Source: Escherichia phage vB_EcoM_FT. Taken from it: a stretch of 64,000 nt of DNA. Below the pieces are notes generated by a model. It did not search any database. It was not told where the DNA came from and saw only the letters and a program-made list of their open reading frames with translations. Positions 17,031-47,044 of this stretch are shown piece after piece. A program made the position numbers and the translations under genes. The number at the start of each line of letters is the position of its first letter. Position 1 is the first letter of the stretch. The stretch lies in the sequence record MT682710.1; one strand, given 5' to 3'.

Positions 17031-17057
17031 CAAAATGAAGAAAGGGGCCGAAGCCCC
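17031..17057 (-). terminator. terminator after hoc
   Basis: Minus strand GGGGC-UUCG-GCCCC followed by UUUCUUCAUUUU. Confidence 0.65.
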
Positions 17058-17063
17058 TTATGA

Positions 17064-18482
17064 TTATGGATAGGTATAGATGATACCAGTTTCTAAAGCA
17101 GTTTTATGAATGATGTATCCATTACGCGATTCTTGAACATCAACTTCTGGATAGTCTTTCATCATCTTCTGAAGAGTGTAACGATGTAGGTAATATTTAC
17201 TATCTGGGTCGTCAGTTTTCCAATCTTTACCTTCTTCGGTCATTTTTTGGATTTCATCCATAACCCACCAACCGCACCAGATATAAGCTGAAGTACGATG
17301 TGGAAGAGGATGAACATAAGGTAATTCACCTTCTGGTTCTGGAGCAACTTTATCAGTTACCTGAACTTGACCTTCTGCTGTAATAGTTTTGCTATCATAG
17401 TCAGTAGCAGTAACAGTTGCAGTAACTTCAATAGTTTGACTTCCAATAGATGAGGTATCAACTGTATACACATTAGTCGATCCTTCTACAGGAGAAGAGT
17501 CTTTCTTCCATGAATAAGTAATTTGCGCTTCTTCTGGAGCATCAGTGACATTAGCAGTAAATGTAGCCGAAGCATCTTGTTGAACGTTAATAGAAGGAGG
17601 AGTCAATGTAACCTGTGGATTCATTGTCTTCTTATTAACTGTTAATGATACTTCATTCGAAGTAACTTCCTTTTCATTGTAATTTTCAGCAGTTACTTGG
17701 GCTACGCATTTAATTCTTTTTACTCCACTTGTAGTTGGAGTATAGCTAAATGTAGAGTTAGTTTCTCCACCAACTTGTGAATCATCTACATACCACTGAT
17801 ACGTAGCAGATGCTCCATCAGGTTGAGAAGCTAAGGCAGCAGTAAATTGAACTGGTGTTCCAATTACTCCAGCTGAAGGACTATCGGGAGTTACTGCCAA
17901 AGTAGTTGTCTGTGTCTTTTTATTAACAGTCAATGACACTTCATTAGAAGTAACTTCTTTTGCATCATAATCTGTCGCGGTTACTTGAGCCACACACTTA
18001 ATTCTTTTTACCCCGCTTTCGGCAGGAGTGTAATTGAACGTAGCGTTAGTTGCTTCGCCCACAGGAGAATCATCTACATACCATTGATAAGTAGCGTTTG
18101 CGCCCGATGGCTGCGAAGCTAAAGCGGCAGTAAATTCAATAGCTGTTCCGATTACTCCAGCGTCAGGGCTATTAGGAGTTACAGCTAAGGTAGTCGTTTG
18201 TGTCTTATTTTGAACTGTGATAGTTGTTGTCGCTTCAGCCGTTTCCGGGCCTCCTTCAGAAAGTGTATTTGTTGCAACTACTTTAATAGTCTTTTGACCG
18301 GCAGGTCCTTTTAGTACATAACTAAAAGTTGCTTCAGCTCCATCTTGTGGAGCATCATCTACAGTCCAAGCATAGGTAATAGTTCCGCCTCCAGTTTCAC
18401 CACTGGGTGTAGCAGTAAACTGCTGAGTCTGATCTATAACTCCAGTAGGTGTTTTAGGAGTTATATCAACTGTAAAAGCCAT
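17064..18482 (-). CDS. hoc: Hoc, highly immunogenic outer capsid protein, with four Ig-like domains (one duplicated)
   Basis: 472 aa; Ig-like repeats; C-terminal capsid-binding region ...YIWCGWWVMDEIQKMTEEGKDW...; 96-aa internal tandem duplication. Confidence 0.9.
   Translation of the reverse strand: MAFTVDITPKTPTGVIDQTQQFTATPSGETGGGTITYAWTVDDAPQDGAEATFSYVLKGPAGQKTIKVVATNTLSEGGPETAEATTTITVQNKTQTTTLAVTPNSPDAGVIGTAIEFTAALASQPSGANATYQWYVDDSPVGEATNATFNYTPAESGVKRIKCVAQVTATDYDAKEVTSNEVSLTVNKKTQTTTLAVTPDSPSAGVIGTPVQFTAALASQPDGASATYQWYVDDSQVGGETNSTFSYTPTTSGVKRIKCVAQVTAENYNEKEVTSNEVSLTVNKKTMNPQVTLTPPSINVQQDASATFTANVTDAPEEAQITYSWKKDSSPVEGSTNVYTVDTSSIGSQTIEVTATVTATDYDSKTITAEGQVQVTDKVAPEPEGELPYVHPLPHRTSAYIWCGWWVMDEIQKMTEEGKDWKTDDPDSKYYLHRYTLQKMMKDYPEVDVQESRNGYIIHKTALETGIIYTYP
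17637..18212 (-). repeat. diverged tandem duplication (2 x 288 bp) inside hoc, encoding two adjacent Ig-like domains
   Basis: Hoc residues ~91-186 and ~187-282 are about 80% identical; DNA at 17635-17670 and 17923-17958 aligns with a 288-bp offset. Confidence 0.85.
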
Positions 18483-29260: not shown

Positions 29261-29264
29261 CAAT

Positions 29265-29293
29265 GGGGACCGAAAGGTCCCCATATTTTATTT
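29265..29293 (+). terminator. terminator after gene 54 (convergent junction)
   Basis: GGGGACC-GAAA-GGUCCCC followed by AUAUUUUAUUU. Confidence 0.7.
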
Positions 29294-29578: not shown

Positions 29579-29586
29579 TTTGTGTT

Positions 29587-29639
29587 CCTCATGTTATGTC
29601 AGTAAGATTACTATAACACAACACGAGGGACTTGTAAAC
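29587..29639 (-). repeat. 53-bp early-promoter repeat, copy 1
   Basis: 51 of 53 nt identical to 45401-45453. Confidence 0.85.
29610..29639 (-). promoter_or_regulatory. early (sigma70-type) promoter: GTTTAC -35, 18-nt spacer, TATAGT -10
   Basis: Minus strand GTTTACAAGTCCCTCGTGTTGTGTTATAGT; part of a 53-bp repeat. Confidence 0.65.
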
Positions 29640-31699: not shown

Positions 31700-33793
31700 T
31701 TATCCTTGAACGAACTTGTAAGGCATGTTTGTAATATCTATGCAAGACGCAATAATTCCAAGAGATGATTCTACTTTCTGTTTAACGTTTGATGAAACAA
31801 ATGATGCAAAGTCAACTCTGTCTTCTATTTCAATATCACCTGTCATTGCAACCAATTCACCAGTTTCCATTAAATGGTCTCCATCATAGATTACCGATTC
31901 GGTGAGCTCTTCCGTGGTCATAACTTCAGCTTGAATGAGTTTTGTATTATTAGATGTTGTTCCGTCATTATTAGAAGCATCAGTTATTTTATTAACTTTG
32001 ACCATCAATCCACGCGGTAGAATAACTTCAGCTTCTGTTGCTATTCCGAGACTTCCTGGATATACAACATTAACTTTATGAGCTCCATCAATTGCCCATC
32101 CTATTTGAACTTTAACGTATTCAGGATTTTCTTTATACGCTCTTATTTCGTTTGGATTAATAGTTATTCCTTCTTCATTTTTATCAACTGTTAATTCATT
32201 GCGAGCTTCTGGTTCTAAAAGACCAATACCAGCATGTGTGATTCCAAAACGTCCAAAAATGATAGGAGTTAAAGAAGTAGATACAAAATTTCTGAAGTAG
32301 AACACTTTATTTTTAACTAACGCTTCATATATAGGAGCAGTCATACTTTGAGCACGATAAACTGTAATGCCTTCTGGTATACGGTCACCATTTTCAAAAG
32401 CTGAATCTAAGTTATTTATAGCAGATTCAATTTCTTTTTCACTCATTACATCATATCGTTCTGGATTGTAACGACCTAAAAGAAGATTATTGATGTCAGT
32501 ATATCCTGAACCACAATATTCTCTAATGCCGCGCTTTTGTGATGGAGTATATTTAGAACCATCACGGGTAATAGTAATATCAATCATTGGACCAGCACCA
32601 ATTCCAGAAAAACTGTAAATCATTCGTTTGAGGAATTTAGTTTTTGCTGCGTTCCAGGAATTTTTAGTTATTTCTTCCCAGACTTCATCTGGTTGTCCTT
32701 TACGATTTTTATTATGATTAGCAAGCCATTTATCTTTATAATCTTCAAAGAATTGATTTACAGCTGCTGCGTATTTCTCTAAACATTTTATTGAAGTAGT
32801 TGGTTCATTTTTAATTGCATTAAAAATTACTTCTTTAATTTTTTCTGAAACTTCACCGACTTGACTCATTGGAAAGAATTTATAATCATAGTGAAGTTCA
32901 TCTGCCGTTCCTTCAGCAATAATTTTTGCTGCCTTTGTTTTAGAAGCTAATGAATTAATTCCAATTTTCATTTCTTCTGCTTCGGGAATTAAAGGTGCAG
33001 TAGCTGGTTTATTAAAATTAGCTGCTGTAGATTCATACTTCTGGAATAATTCACTTTCAAATCTAGAAGATTCCAATGACTGACTTTGTGCAATTGCTCT
33101 ACGGGAAATTTTAACTTTAACGATTACGGCTTGGTCAGAACGTTTATCATTTTCTTGTGCAATAGATGCTGCAATTGCCTCATTTTTAGTTACTTGGGCT
33201 CCAGTATCTTTATTGATATAAACATCGCCGACTTTCGATTCAACTTTAGTAAAGAGTTCAGTGCTAATTTCTGGAACTCCTGGAATGTTTTCTAGTGATA
33301 CATTTTTACGATGTATAAGAATATATGCATACTTTTTATCGTAATCCCAGAGTTCCTTAAGAAGGACGTATCTGCCACCTGAACGACTACGGATAAGTCT
33401 ATCAGCAATAACTTGAATTTGCCGAGCTTGACCAGCGGTTTTAGACTTAAGAATACGAAGCATGCAGGCATCAATTTTATATTGACGCATAGTTTGCATT
33501 GCAACAGTAAAAACTGAATTGATATAATTAATTGGGCTTGGACCAAGACCTTTTAATTTAGCAATTGAACCTTTAGCAGTTAATGTAAAAGGAACAATAT
33601 GCATCATTTTATCGCCCATCTTTAAATCGCGATTAGTATCACCTCCAGATGTATAGGTACATAAACGAAAGCCTGGTTGTTCAATTGCGTCATCGACATG
33701 AACTGAAAAAATTTGTGGTATTTTCTTCTTTGGATTTAAGTTTGTAATCGGAAGAGTAGTATCTTCGTCAAATAATTCTGTAATAAGTTCCAT
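31700..33793 (-). CDS. alt: Alt ADP-ribosyltransferase (internal head protein)
   Basis: 697 aa from second ATG (better RBS spacing); ART triad R (VYRAQ) / STS / ExE (TEAEVILPRG); late promoter upstream. Confidence 0.9.
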   Translation of the reverse strand: MELITELFDEDTTLPITNLNPKKKIPQIFSVHVDDAIEQPGFRLCTYTSGGDTNRDLKMGDKMMHIVPFTLTAKGSIAKLKGLGPSPINYINSVFTVAMQTMRQYKIDACMLRILKSKTAGQARQIQVIADRLIRSRSGGRYVLLKELWDYDKKYAYILIHRKNVSLENIPGVPEISTELFTKVESKVGDVYINKDTGAQVTKNEAIAASIAQENDKRSDQAVIVKVKISRRAIAQSQSLESSRFESELFQKYESTAANFNKPATAPLIPEAEEMKIGINSLASKTKAAKIIAEGTADELHYDYKFFPMSQVGEVSEKIKEVIFNAIKNEPTTSIKCLEKYAAAVNQFFEDYKDKWLANHNKNRKGQPDEVWEEITKNSWNAAKTKFLKRMIYSFSGIGAGPMIDITITRDGSKYTPSQKRGIREYCGSGYTDINNLLLGRYNPERYDVMSEKEIESAINNLDSAFENGDRIPEGITVYRAQSMTAPIYEALVKNKVFYFRNFVSTSLTPIIFGRFGITHAGIGLLEPEARNELTVDKNEEGITINPNEIRAYKENPEYVKVQIGWAIDGAHKVNVVYPGSLGIATEAEVILPRGLMVKVNKITDASNNDGTTSNNTKLIQAEVMTTEELTESVIYDGDHLMETGELVAMTGDIEIEDRVDFASFVSSNVKQKVESSLGIIASCIDITNMPYKFVQG

Positions 33794-33816
33794 CATAGCC
33801 TCTCTAGTGTTTATTC

Positions 33817-33824
33817 TATTTATA
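33817..33824 (-). promoter_or_regulatory. late promoter for alt
   Basis: TATAAATA on minus strand ~20 nt upstream of the alt ATG. Confidence 0.65.
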
Positions 33825-37462: not shown

Positions 37463-37782
37463 TAGAACCTCATCTGAAAACCATGCGATTTAACATTACC
37501 ACCGCCAATATCAGAAATGTTAATTTCACTCGCAATCGAAGGATCGATGTCAATTTCGCGATTGAGTTTAGTGATAGCTAAAGTATCACGCCCATTTACT
37601 GTACGGAATTCTAAAGGACAAACCACATCAACGTAATTTTTAATCGATTCACTGGTAGGTTGCAAATGAGCAGGAAGGTCTTTGGGCGCCTTTGAGAAAA
37701 CCACTTCACAGAAATTTTTACGGGTATCAAAATAAGTAGTCATAAACATGGTATTTTCCTCAGTAAGGGGCCGAAGCCCCAT
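37462..37782 (-). CDS. hypothetical protein
   Basis: 106-aa ORF; start may be an internal Met. Confidence 0.5.
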   Translation of the reverse strand: MGLRPLTEENTMFMTTYFDTRKNFCEVVFSKAPKDLPAHLQPTSESIKNYVDVVCPLEFRTVNGRDTLAITKLNREIDIDPSIASEINISDIGGGNVKSHGFQMRF

Positions 37783-37788
37783 TTTATT

Positions 37789-38154
37789 TTAAATATCAAA
37801 TTCATTAAGAACTACATCAAAGATTGCTTCGAGATGTTCAGGTTTAGCTCTGTTACTCAGAATATGACGAATCCAAGTTTTAACCAAAAGCTTGCGATTA
37901 GCACCATTCCAACAAGGATGAGTCCCTAAATCGCGTTGACGAAAATCATCATCCAGAGCGATTTTAAAGTTGGAACCTTCCATTGTGATTGAAACCGTGA
38001 TGCCATTTTCAAATCGCATATAAACGTAATTAGGAGTCATATACTGTTCAATTTCGCATACTGATCCATTTTGATGTTTCCAAAGGCAAATAGTATCAAT
38101 AGAACCTGCAATACCATTAGAAACATATTTACGTTCAAAGTTGATGTAGTTCAT
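37789..38154 (-). CDS. hypothetical protein
   Basis: 121-aa ORF downstream of an early promoter; GGAG RBS. Confidence 0.6.
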   Translation of the reverse strand: MNYINFERKYVSNGIAGSIDTICLWKHQNGSVCEIEQYMTPNYVYMRFENGITVSITMEGSNFKIALDDDFRQRDLGTHPCWNGANRKLLVKTWIRHILSNRAKPEHLEAIFDVVLNEFDI

Positions 38155-38190: not shown

Positions 38191-38220
38191 TATAATATCA
38201 TATCCTGTACCAAAGTAAAC
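38191..38220 (-). promoter_or_regulatory. early promoter candidate (GTTTAC -35, TATTAT -10)
   Basis: Minus strand GTTTAC then TATTAT; -10 lies inside an 8-bp inverted repeat GGTACAGG/CCTGTACC. Confidence 0.5.
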
Positions 38221-44548: not shown

Positions 44549-44898
44549 TTAGAAAGGTCCTGGATGTCTTCTGCGAACTTATTGAAGGAGTTGTTGATTT
44601 GTTTTTCAACCAATCCTGGCTTATGAGCCACCACATCCGCCTTCTTTGCATCTTTGCGCAGTTTTTCATTTTCACGCTCAATAGCAGCAATTGCCTCACG
44701 ATTTTTATTATTCATCGCATCAATATAATTATACTGAATTCGCAAATTATTTAATGCTAAGGCGTTTTCATTGGCCGTTTTTGTAATTTCAGTAACTGAT
44801 GTTTCTAATCTTTCTACCTTATTTTTTAAAATAATAGATGTTCCGCCAAATGCTATTACAAGTAATAGCAATCCAGCTGTAAAATTACTTACATGCAT
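44545..44898 (-). CDS. N-terminal transmembrane + coiled-coil protein, inner-membrane spanin-like
   Basis: 117 aa; hydrophobic N-terminus LLLLVIAFGGTSIIL; rest charged helical; overlaps the lipoprotein ORF. Confidence 0.6.
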   Translation of the reverse strand: MHVSNFTAGLLLLVIAFGGTSIILKNKVERLETSVTEITKTANENALALNNLRIQYNYIDAMNNKNREAIAAIERENEKLRKDAKKADVVAHKPGLVEKQINNSFNKFAEDIQDLSK

Positions 44899-45395
44899 AA
44901 AGTTTTAATAACCTCTATAATATCGTCTTGAGAAAGACTGTTAATTAAAATATGATGTTCAGCTGGAGATTTAGAAATTTTAAAACATGCCTCAACATCT
45001 TCTGCCATATCCGATGCGCTACGATTTGGATTACTAATCCCAAGGCGGTGTTTTCCCGTCAAAGGATTAACGATGATATAGCATTTACAACTATTGATAT
45101 GAACATTAGGCTGAGTCTGATTAATGAACACTTCACAATCATACTTAGCGAGTTGATTTTCTAAAAAGACTTTCATCTCCTCAACCGCATCGGGAAGCAT
45201 ATCACGGGCTTGCTCAAGACGACGATTTCGATATTCTTTAACGGTCGTTTTCCGCTTGACTTGCTTAGCTAAATCTTTCTTAAGATCGGTGATATATCCA
45301 ACTCGACGATTTCCTTTGAATACAGAAATCCCATCTGTAGTATCACCGTATGCTTCAACGACCATTTCAGTAGTAATAAGCTGCAAATCCATCAT
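44889..45395 (-). CDS. alc: Alc, transcription terminator on cytosine-containing DNA
   Basis: 168 aa, MMDLQLITTEM...; position between spanin pair and rnlA. Confidence 0.75.
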   Translation of the reverse strand: MMDLQLITTEMVVEAYGDTTDGISVFKGNRRVGYITDLKKDLAKQVKRKTTVKEYRNRRLEQARDMLPDAVEEMKVFLENQLAKYDCEVFINQTQPNVHINSCKCYIIVNPLTGKHRLGISNPNRSASDMAEDVEACFKISKSPAEHHILINSLSQDDIIEVIKTLCM

Positions 45396-45400
45396 AAAGT

Positions 45401-45453
45401 CCTCATGTTATGTCAGTAAGACTACTATAACACAACATGAGGGACTTGTAAAC
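45401..45453 (-). repeat. 53-bp early-promoter repeat, copy 2
   Basis: 51 of 53 nt identical to 29587-29639. Confidence 0.85.
45424..45453 (-). promoter_or_regulatory. early promoter upstream of alc: GTTTAC-N18-TATAGT
   Basis: Minus strand GTTTACAAGTCCCTCATGTTGTGTTATAGT; second copy of the 53-bp repeat. Confidence 0.65.
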
Positions 45454-45456
45454 AGC

Positions 45457-47044
<1,588 letters not shown>

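Follow-up and report, generated by a model that had tools for sequence, protein, structure and literature searches.

The stretch of DNA analyzed here, 64,000 nucleotides of Escherichia phage vB_EcoM_FT (MT682710.1; referred to as the window), comes from the genome of a T4-like myovirus of the genus Tequatrovirus. On its minus strand, a homolog of the small T4 gene alt.-3 is preceded by a 54-nt cassette that extends from the -35 region of a putative early promoter to the Shine-Dalgarno (SD) sequence, and a second copy of the cassette is located upstream of alc, which codes for the inhibitor of host transcription (Table 1). A first-pass annotation of the window had described a 53-bp element with 51 of 53 nucleotides identical at the two sites. 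This description was confirmed at the coordinates given; over the full 54 nt the copies are identical at 52 positions (two mismatches), and 51/53 was obtained over the span given earlier. The identity begins exactly at the -35 region and ends exactly at the SD sequence, and no such match between the two cassettes was expected by chance (0 expected, 100 shuffles). In both copies the stop codon of the upstream gene is close by: a TAG overlaps the G of GTTTAC in copy 1, and a TAA is located 5 nt before the -35 region in copy 2. The search for further copies proposed in the first-pass annotation revealed only these two in the window, and 499 Tequatrovirus-like records contained 997 places with at least 92.6% identity, which amounts to essentially two cassettes per genome. 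T4 itself carries both (123040-123093 and 136283-136336). Outside the Tequatrovirus-like group, no cassette was found at E ≤ 1e-3. In the 2 kb around the cassette, Shigella phage ESh25, Escherichia phage ES19 and hundreds of relatives reach 98-99% identity to the window.

Promoter scans identified the sequence TTTACA-17-TATAGT at both copies, matching the consensus at 10 of 12 positions, and a TG ahead of the second hexamer indicative of an extended -10 region. The late-promoter motif TATAAATA was absent from both cassettes. Upstream of the -35 region, the alt.-3 copy carries AAAAAGTTCAAAATGTA, which resembles many T4 early promoters (...aaagtt GTTTAC), while the alc copy carries GGATACTAAGCT proximally and an A/T-rich stretch only farther upstream. 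According to time-resolved transcriptome and proteome data, T4 alt.-3 and alc are early with respect to both RNA and protein, and the genes alt.-1 and alt.-2 upstream are classified as 'middle' (PMC9697503 supplements), which fits an early promoter directly before alt.-3. The T4 early-promoter pattern at both copies and the early class of the two T4 genes bear out the initial assignment as early promoter (GTTTAC/TATAGT), and judged by its sequence the cassette would be a typical T4-type σ70 early promoter. Promoter features for this region are missing from the T4 records NC_000866 and AF158101, no smaller annotated T4 record with alc appeared among the top hits of a search, and an RNA-seq paper on DksA contains nothing on alc or alt.

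The sense RNA of the cassette is predicted to fold into a hairpin of 18 bp, which consists of 14 outer pairs between CCUCGUGUUGUGUU and GACAUAACAUGAGG including three G-U pairs, a 2-nt bulge, four pairs (AGUA/UACU) and a 4-nt loop (A/GUCU). Folding of the 48-nt sense RNAs resulted in -22.0 kcal/mol for copy 1 and -22.4 kcal/mol for copy 2 (z-scores of -6.3 and -5.9), and none of 200 shuffled sequences was as good. The hairpin persisted in a 91-nt context (z-scores of -4.05 and -4.54). In contrast, the antisense strands reached only -12.8 and -17.2 kcal/mol, respectively. This gap is due to the G-U pairs and argues for a role in the sense transcript and not in the DNA. The 9-nt inverted repeat reported at first pass is real but comprises only the outer part of the predicted helix. 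Its placement was reproduced in the predicted fold of both copies, with the 5′ arm in the spacer between the -35 and -10 regions, where it ends before the last five bases of the -10 region, and the 3′ arm over the SD sequence. Likewise, the G that replaces an A in the 5′ arm of copy 1 keeps the pairing, as had been stated, by forming a G-U instead of an A-U pair. Rfam covariance models at gathering score returned no match across the whole window.

The folding of read-through and promoter-initiated 5′ ends, which had been suggested as a check, gave clearly different results. Read-through RNAs formed the stable hairpin, while RNAs starting 7 nt past the -10 region were essentially unstructured (0 and -1.8 kcal/mol). 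The computed cost of opening the SD sequence was 11.4 kcal/mol for alt.-3 and 7.2 kcal/mol for alc in the read-through RNA compared to 2.9 and 1.7 kcal/mol, respectively, in the promoter-initiated RNA. Over both window copies and eight alc orthologs, opening required 7-14 kcal/mol in the read-through and 0.3-3.1 kcal/mol in the promoter-initiated form. These predictions agree with the earlier proposal that the ribosome binding site is sequestered in read-through RNA only.

Comparison of alc orthologs provided the strongest evidence for selection on the structure. Six orthologs outside Tequatrovirus exhibit a GTTTAC-N17/18-TAnnAT promoter, and its first bases behind the -35 region perfectly complement the SD region. 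The complement extends over 10 bp in STP4-a (Gelderlandvirus), 13 bp in UFV01 (Karamvirus), 11 bp in Klebsiella phage Lion_ER11, 9 bp in KIT01 (Dhakavirus), 13 bp in CBH8 (Winklervirus) and 11 bp in R3_1 (Marfavirus). The arm pairs at alc are all different (ATCTCCGTTT/AAACGGAGAT, TCTCCATTTGGTT/AACCAAATGGAGA, ATCCTCATCAG/CTGATGAGGAT, TCTCCTCAT/ATGAGGAGA, TCCTCATTTCGTT/AACGAAATGAGGA, CCTCGTTTGTT/AACAAACGAGG and CCTCATGTT/AACATGAGG). In an alignment-free test, the alc spacer of each genus was paired in turn with all seven leaders, its own and the six others. The longest perfect stem had a mean length of 10.9 bp (range 9-13; seven genera) in own pairs and of 5.8 bp (range 3-8) in cross pairs, and the own pair was the longest in all seven genera. 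With different but complementary arms in each genus, the helix has undergone compensatory evolution, and the SD sequence is part of it throughout. Two phages, Morganella phage Rgz1 and Aeromonas phage 31, have the 5′ arm relocated between the -10 region and the predicted +1; its position upstream of the start and its pairing with the SD sequence are retained. Altogether, the 3′ arm at alc covers the SD sequence in nine of ten promoter-bearing orthologs despite complete turnover of the arm sequences, and masked orthologs require 10-14 kcal/mol for SD opening in read-through RNA compared to 0.5-3.1 kcal/mol in promoter-initiated RNA. Yersinia phage P8 and an Acinetobacter phage have no promoter before alc. 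RNAalifold did not find any pairs in a MAFFT alignment of the alc leaders from seven genera, because the register of the helix varies by genus and the alignment leaves the arms unaligned. Within Tequatrovirus, 14 distinct cassette variants were compared on the 18-pair structure. Of all cells, 98.8% were paired, six substitutions keep pairing via G-U or A-U, and one full compensatory change (C15-G50 to U-G to U-A) was observed. The selection on structure claimed in the first-pass annotation is strongly supported by this comparison of alc arms across genera, and less so by the G/A difference between the two copies on which the claim had been based.

From these predictions, we favor with moderate confidence a model in which the cassette is a σ70 early promoter of the PeSL type (early promoter plus stem-loop) whose transcript additionally acts as a gate for translation. 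The anti-SD arm would be formed by 14 nt of the spacer close behind the -35 region. Polymerases arriving from upstream, from the alt genes into alt.-3 and from rnlA and the nrd/td unit into alc, would transcribe both arms. The read-through RNA would fold into the 18-bp hairpin with a buried SD sequence, and the downstream gene would be poorly translated in the middle and late periods. RNA from the cassette's own promoter would begin about 7 nt past the -10 region without the 5′ arm and present an open leader of 22-25 nt. Translation of alt.-3 and alc would thereby depend on the short period in which their own early promoter is active. The source of read-through into alc would be the long nrd/td/rnlA prereplicative unit. 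At the other copy, a late motif is located just upstream of the first alt gene and the terminator scan did not find a terminator before the alt.-3 cassette, so that late alt transcripts should enter alt.-3 with the SD sequence buried. Within this model, we infer the start site, the existence and abundance of the read-through RNA and the effect on translation; the promoter, the sequestration and the structural selection are supported in silico.

To see how widespread such an arrangement might be, the T4 genome was scanned for early-promoter patterns, which resulted in 37 credible sites. Inverted repeats between the spacer and the region downstream of -10 with perfect stems of at least 7 bp were present at 13 of them compared to 3.1% of cross-pairings, and stems of at least 8 bp at 8 of them compared to 0.6%. 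SD masking was then evaluated for each native T4 promoter against 35-36 promoter-swap chimeras. Ten of the 37 promoters, namely those preceding modB, motB.2, e.8, denV, regB, nrdC.8, alc, 30.8, alt.-3 and ndd.4, mask their own SD sequence more than all or nearly all chimeras; opening requires 7-16 kcal/mol compared to about 1 kcal/mol in RNA from +1. As at alc, the regB orthologs of Mosigvirus (TTCTCCTCTAGT/ACTAGAGGAGAA) and Moonvirus have different yet complementary arms. Rather than being a special case, the alt.-3/alc pair exemplifies a wider design shared by about 10 of the 37 T4 early promoters.

Several related observations were made on the way. Perfect stems of 12-14 bp precede mobD.2 and ipII in T4 (NC_000866), and the same layout of inverted repeats occurs at the window minus-strand promoters at 38219, 38611, 42149, 53745, 57760 and 14125. 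The masked SD sequence of regB in T4, Mosigvirus and Moonvirus contains RegB's own target GGAG, so that regB transcripts arriving from upstream may escape translation as well as cleavage by RegB. T4 harbors several families of near-identical promoter-plus-leader cassettes (2458 and 50973; 55384 and 146875; 27080, 55384, 70696, 163673 and 167086), one of which shares the sequence 'GGTACTATacaactatcaactactgatacggatttggagaataaaatg'; the idea that the alt.-3/alc pair is a unique repeat was consequently rejected. Furthermore, a spacer palindrome of the form xCAC-AAGGA-GTGx (e.g. CCACAAGGATGTGG) with an SD-like AAGGA loop recurs at different loci and in different genera, including the T4 promoters at 2458, 50973 and 167086, alc of NHEP10 and alt.-3 orthologs.

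A number of findings weigh against a translational gate. The alc gene of the Mosigvirus-like phage NHEP10 lacks SD pairing. Among the Tequatrovirus variants, three substitutions break pairs, and covariation within this genus is not significant alone (109 of 500 shuffles reach it). Most T4 early-promoter hairpins are self-contained around the -10 region and leave the SD sequence free, which makes SD masking the property of a subclass and not a universal role of the repeats; their generic role may be attenuation, RNA stability or recombination, with SD masking being secondary. As the upstream stop codon is located 0-8 nt before the -35 region, terminating ribosomes might partly open the helix and cause coupling instead of silencing. 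Finally, alt.-3 orthologs in Gaprivervirus, Mosigvirus, Marfavirus and Kanagawavirus do not show SD masking. Their promoter is early but of another type with a palindrome inside the spacer. Since SD masking is conserved in other genera at alc and not at alt.-3, the sequences suggest that the Tequatrovirus alt.-3 cassette is most likely a copy of the alc cassette, which would have replaced the earlier alt.-3 promoter in the ancestor of this genus via recombination or gene conversion between promoter cassettes. Scans of IMG/VR with the Alc and Alt.-3 proteins returned 6 and 5 loci, respectively. A metagenome scan with the loop motif TGTTATAGTANTCTTACT returned 93 stretches, about 10 of which are true cassettes and nearly all others chance matches.

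Table 1. Features of the two cassettes and of the surrounding genes in the window.
Feature	Position	Strand	Comment
Cassette copy 1, 54 nt (-35 to SD), GTTTACAAGTCCCTCGTGTTGTGTTATAGTAATCTTACTGACATAACATGAGGA	29586-29639	-	upstream of alt.-3
-35 hexamer TTTACA, copy 1	29633-29638	-	promoter scan; G at 29639 doubles as last base of the upstream TAG stop codon
Outer-helix 5′ arm (anti-SD arm), copy 1, CCUCGUGUUGUGUU	29615-29628	-	in promoter spacer, upstream of any start site of that promoter
-10 hexamer TATAGT, copy 1	29610-29615	-	preceded by TGn (extended -10)
Inner 4-bp helix AGUA/UACU with loop AUCU, copy 1	29601-29612	-	RNA fold prediction
Predicted +1 (A), copy 1	29603	-	7 nt past -10; putative start site
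Outer-helix 3′ arm, copy 1, GACAUAACAUGAGG	29587-29600	-	contains SD sequence GAGGA
SD sequence GAGGA, copy 1	29586-29590	-	
Cassette copy 2	45400-45453	-	upstream of alc; repeat family D7 with copy 1
-35 hexamer, copy 2	45447-45452	-	
5′ arm, copy 2	45429-45442	-	
-10 hexamer, copy 2	45424-45429	-	
Predicted +1, copy 2	45417	-	
3′ arm, copy 2	45401-45414	-	
SD sequence, copy 2	45400-45404	-	
alt.-3 homolog, 96 aa	29288-29578	-	served by copy 1, 8 nt downstream of the cassette; colinear with T4
Alt paralog, 685 aa	29639-31696	-	upstream of copy 1; stop codon directly precedes the cassette; its transcripts would read through
First alt gene	31700-33796	-	
Late-promoter motif TATAAATA	33817-33824	-	just upstream of first alt gene; possible source of late read-through RNA into alt.-3
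Terminator-like hairpin	29263-29284	both	bidirectional; separates alt.-3 from the convergent gene 54; end of the transcription unit of alt.-3
alc (inhibitor of host transcription)	44889-45395	-	served by copy 2
rnlA (gene 63)	45457-46617	-	upstream of copy 2; its transcripts would read through the cassette

The architecture of the cassette is not new, as it belongs to the known classes of T4 early promoters and PeSLs. The standard pattern of T4 early promoters (PMC2988021) is that of the cassette: both have a GTTTAC -35 region, a 17-bp spacer, TGn, a TAnnnT -10 region and a leader of 22-25 nt ending with GAGGA and ATG, and both are located before early genes. Reviews describe these promoters as signals in the DNA that have 'additional regions of consensus', whereas the spacer sequence is read here as an anti-SD arm at the RNA level. 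PeSLs were defined by Arbiol et al. 2010 (PMC2839356) and Comeau et al. 2014 (PMC4122927), who proposed terminator or attenuator as well as recombination roles. They share with the cassette the order of upstream stop codon, early promoter, stem-loop, SD sequence and ATG, possibly also the A/T-rich region between stop codon and promoter, and the cassette combines an early promoter with a stable stem-loop bounded by the upstream stop and the downstream SD/ATG as described for this class. The stem-loops of RB49 and phi1 are mostly found between the -35 and -10 regions or overlap the -10 region, and the hairpin of the cassette also overlaps -10. PeSLs are repeated in the genome and were proposed as recombination substrates, a literature into which the possible recombination hotspot considered in the first-pass annotation would fit. 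On the other hand, their stem-loop has been read as a terminator or attenuator and a recombination target, the 2010 paper does not contain the word 'translation', and the stem-loops of the PST/T4 pair were drawn just upstream of the promoter. The 3′ arm of the cassette is the SD sequence itself and is not followed by a U-tract, and the two cassettes are located 13-16 kb apart around essential genes instead of flanking an ORFan. A similar reading is found in GenBank entry X04567.1 (T4 58.3-65.5 kb, 1986), in which inverted repeats before ipIII, ipII, denV and ORF61.9 (regB) are annotated as 'put. stem-loop structure; pot. transcription terminator'. The arms enclose the '-10 region' of the following gene, and the 3′ arm overlaps the 'rRNA binding site' at denV and regB, as in the cassette; these stem-loops were, however, taken as terminators of the upstream genes, concern other loci and predate the comparative evidence.

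The closest functional relatives are T4 e, soc, 49 and I-TevI. It was demonstrated experimentally that long transcripts of these genes bury the SD/AUG region, while transcripts from an internal promoter, which lack the 5′ arm, are translated (PMC3014915). Pairing of the SD sequence in upstream transcripts, predicted in our case, and the position of a promoter whose RNA misses the 5′ arm are common to both. In contrast, the internal promoters of the known examples are late (TATAAATA) or middle promoters that delay translation, whereas the σ70 early promoter of the cassette would act as the mirror image and allow translation in the first minutes only. In this respect, alt.-3 would be the reverse of soc, with exclusively early expression of a gene that closes a late unit. 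The genes alc, alt.-3, regB and denV are not among the known examples of masking hairpins, and the 2010 review of post-transcriptional control in T4 (PMC3014915) does not list a case with an early promoter. Further literature searched, the scope of which did not include older work in subscription journals (e.g. Liebig and Rüger 1989), did not reveal SD gating at early promoters either. From this comparison, SD gating at early promoters as a mirror image of the e/soc/49/I-TevI mechanism does not appear to have been described and would be what is new here, in an element of known kind.

Other explanations for the hairpin were considered. It may act on the RNA of the upstream gene as attenuator, terminator or 3′-end stabilizer and overlap the SD sequence incidentally. 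Such a role is suggested by the labels in X04567.1 for the equivalent repeats at ipIII, ipII, denV and regB, by an RB49 PeSL stem-loop that cut lacZ expression as strongly as the rrnB T1 terminator (PMC2839356) and by the many T4 early-promoter hairpins that stop short of the SD sequence. Like an intrinsic terminator, the cassette forms a stable stem-loop where the upstream gene ends. Its stem is, however, rich in A/U and G-U pairs, and the 3′ arm is followed by ACACAAAAUG in copy 1 and CUUUAUGAUGG in copy 2; in these copies as well as in all alc orthologs the flank is A-rich and devoid of a U-tract, for which reason an intrinsic terminator was rejected. The terminator scan did not report anything at either cassette, and coverage of the SD sequence by the 3′ arm in nearly all promoter-bearing alc orthologs is unneeded for a mere terminator. 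We regard this explanation as improbable, although it ranks ahead of the others. Translational coupling, in which the SD sequence is masked until a ribosome terminating at the close upstream stop melts the helix, so that read-through RNA yields the downstream product only in parallel with the upstream one, is rather unlikely. It agrees with the strong masking in read-through RNA and with a stop codon that, at both window copies and at every alc ortholog examined, overlaps the -35 region or is located within 8 nt of it. The helix nevertheless begins 6-18 nt downstream of the stop codon. Given its footprint, a ribosome terminating there would unwind no more than 0-3 of the 9-18 pairs, which counts against coupling, and the early-only alt.-3 next to the 'middle' genes alt.-1 and alt.-2 fits silencing better.

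A comparably small probability is given to the view that the two copies reflect promoter duplication or gene conversion, their identity being kept by promoter function and recombination, and that the repeat acts in the DNA as cruciform or recombination site or has no function. The confinement of the identity to the segment from -35 to SD, the other families of near-identical promoter cassettes in T4 and the reported recombination of PeSLs, for which T4 needs less than 50 bp of homology (PMC2839356), are in line with this view, and the different promoter type of alt.-3 in other genera implies a replacement in Tequatrovirus. However, the three G-U pairs stabilize the sense RNA and correspond to G-T and C-A mismatches in the DNA, and the covariation of the alc arms across genera always involves the SD sequence. 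Moreover, a crossover between the direct repeats would delete the essential genes 30 and 31, as deduced from the gene map, so that only gene conversion would be viable. Very unlikely, finally, is a function of the 18-bp helix as processing site, e.g. for RNase III, or as shield against nucleases such as RegB at the gene boundary. The helix is long (18 bp with a bulge), RNA structure protects GGAG sites from RegB (PMC3014915), and GGAG is present within the masked SD sequence of several orthologs. Yet the helices of other genera comprise only 9-13 bp, and neither an Rfam family nor a known processing motif matches. The Tequatrovirus SD sequence is GAGGA(C/A) and contains neither GGAG nor GGAU; targeting by RegB was therefore rejected for this genus. 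None of these alternatives explains as well as a translational gate why the 3′ arm at alc and regB keeps following the SD sequence although the arm sequences have turned over completely.

Copy 1 is located next to a variable region with a full Alt paralog in the window and the remnants alt.-1 and alt.-2 in T4; a recombinant junction was not observed. The window carries two full-length tandem paralogs of the ADP-ribosyltransferase Alt with 685 and 698 aa, which are about 72-82% identical in patches (repeat families D3, D6, D8 and D15), where T4 has one alt gene plus the two remnants. The T4 alt.-2 open reading frame extends into the cassette and terminates at a TAG within the -10 region. Downstream of alt.-3, the terminator-like hairpin consists of a perfect, G+C-rich stem of 9 bp (ATGGGGACC GAAA GGTCCCCAT) with T-runs on both strands. 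Another terminator-like hairpin motif, GGGGCC-GAA-GCCCC (AAGGGGCCGAAGCCCC), occurs in two copies at 17039-17072 and 37762-37795, which are 79% identical and 20.7 kb apart. A tandem duplication with a unit of 288 nt and 76% identity spans positions 17625-18200. On the basis of colinearity with T4, it is probably located in or near hoc, whose repeats of Ig-like domains are of that size. Several families of diverged direct repeats (27-71 nt; spacings of 108, 120 and 375 nt) between 59209 and 59912 are presumably repeated structural motifs of a tail-fibre gene. The late-promoter motif TATAAATA was found 19 times in the window compared to 8.85 expected occurrences, mostly within the late-gene block (5-20 kb) on the plus strand.

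The early genes of T4 are packed head to tail, so that almost every one of them is also present on long read-through RNAs made later. RegB accounts for some, and the mechanism by which early promoters are shut off has been described as unknown (PMC2988021, PMC3014915). If the spacer serves as anti-SD, shut-off of the promoter would automatically stop translation without destroying or terminating the read-through RNA. This would apply to alc, the killer of host transcription, and to the RNase gene regB, both of which plausibly need tight dosing, and it would constitute a sequence-level rule with natural compensatory variants in other genera. Part of the unexplained 'extra consensus' in T4 early promoters would thereby receive a function, and stem-loops that have been annotated as terminators since 1986 would be re-interpreted. 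For the annotation and engineering of T4-like therapeutic phages, it would mean that a gene moved without its cassette, or a cassette read through from a synthetic promoter, may be silenced. More tentatively, and with rather less confidence than for the cassette itself, we consider the possibility that a sizeable subset of early promoters throughout the Tevenvirinae, about a quarter in T4, carries an anti-SD in its untranscribed spacer, which would hard-wire translation to the gene's own promoter and silence it on the abundant delayed-early, middle and late read-through RNA. If true, such a genome-wide code of 'promoter-coupled translation', a mirror image of the e/soc mechanism of late genes, would help to explain the rapid shut-off of early protein synthesis once the early promoters are switched off.

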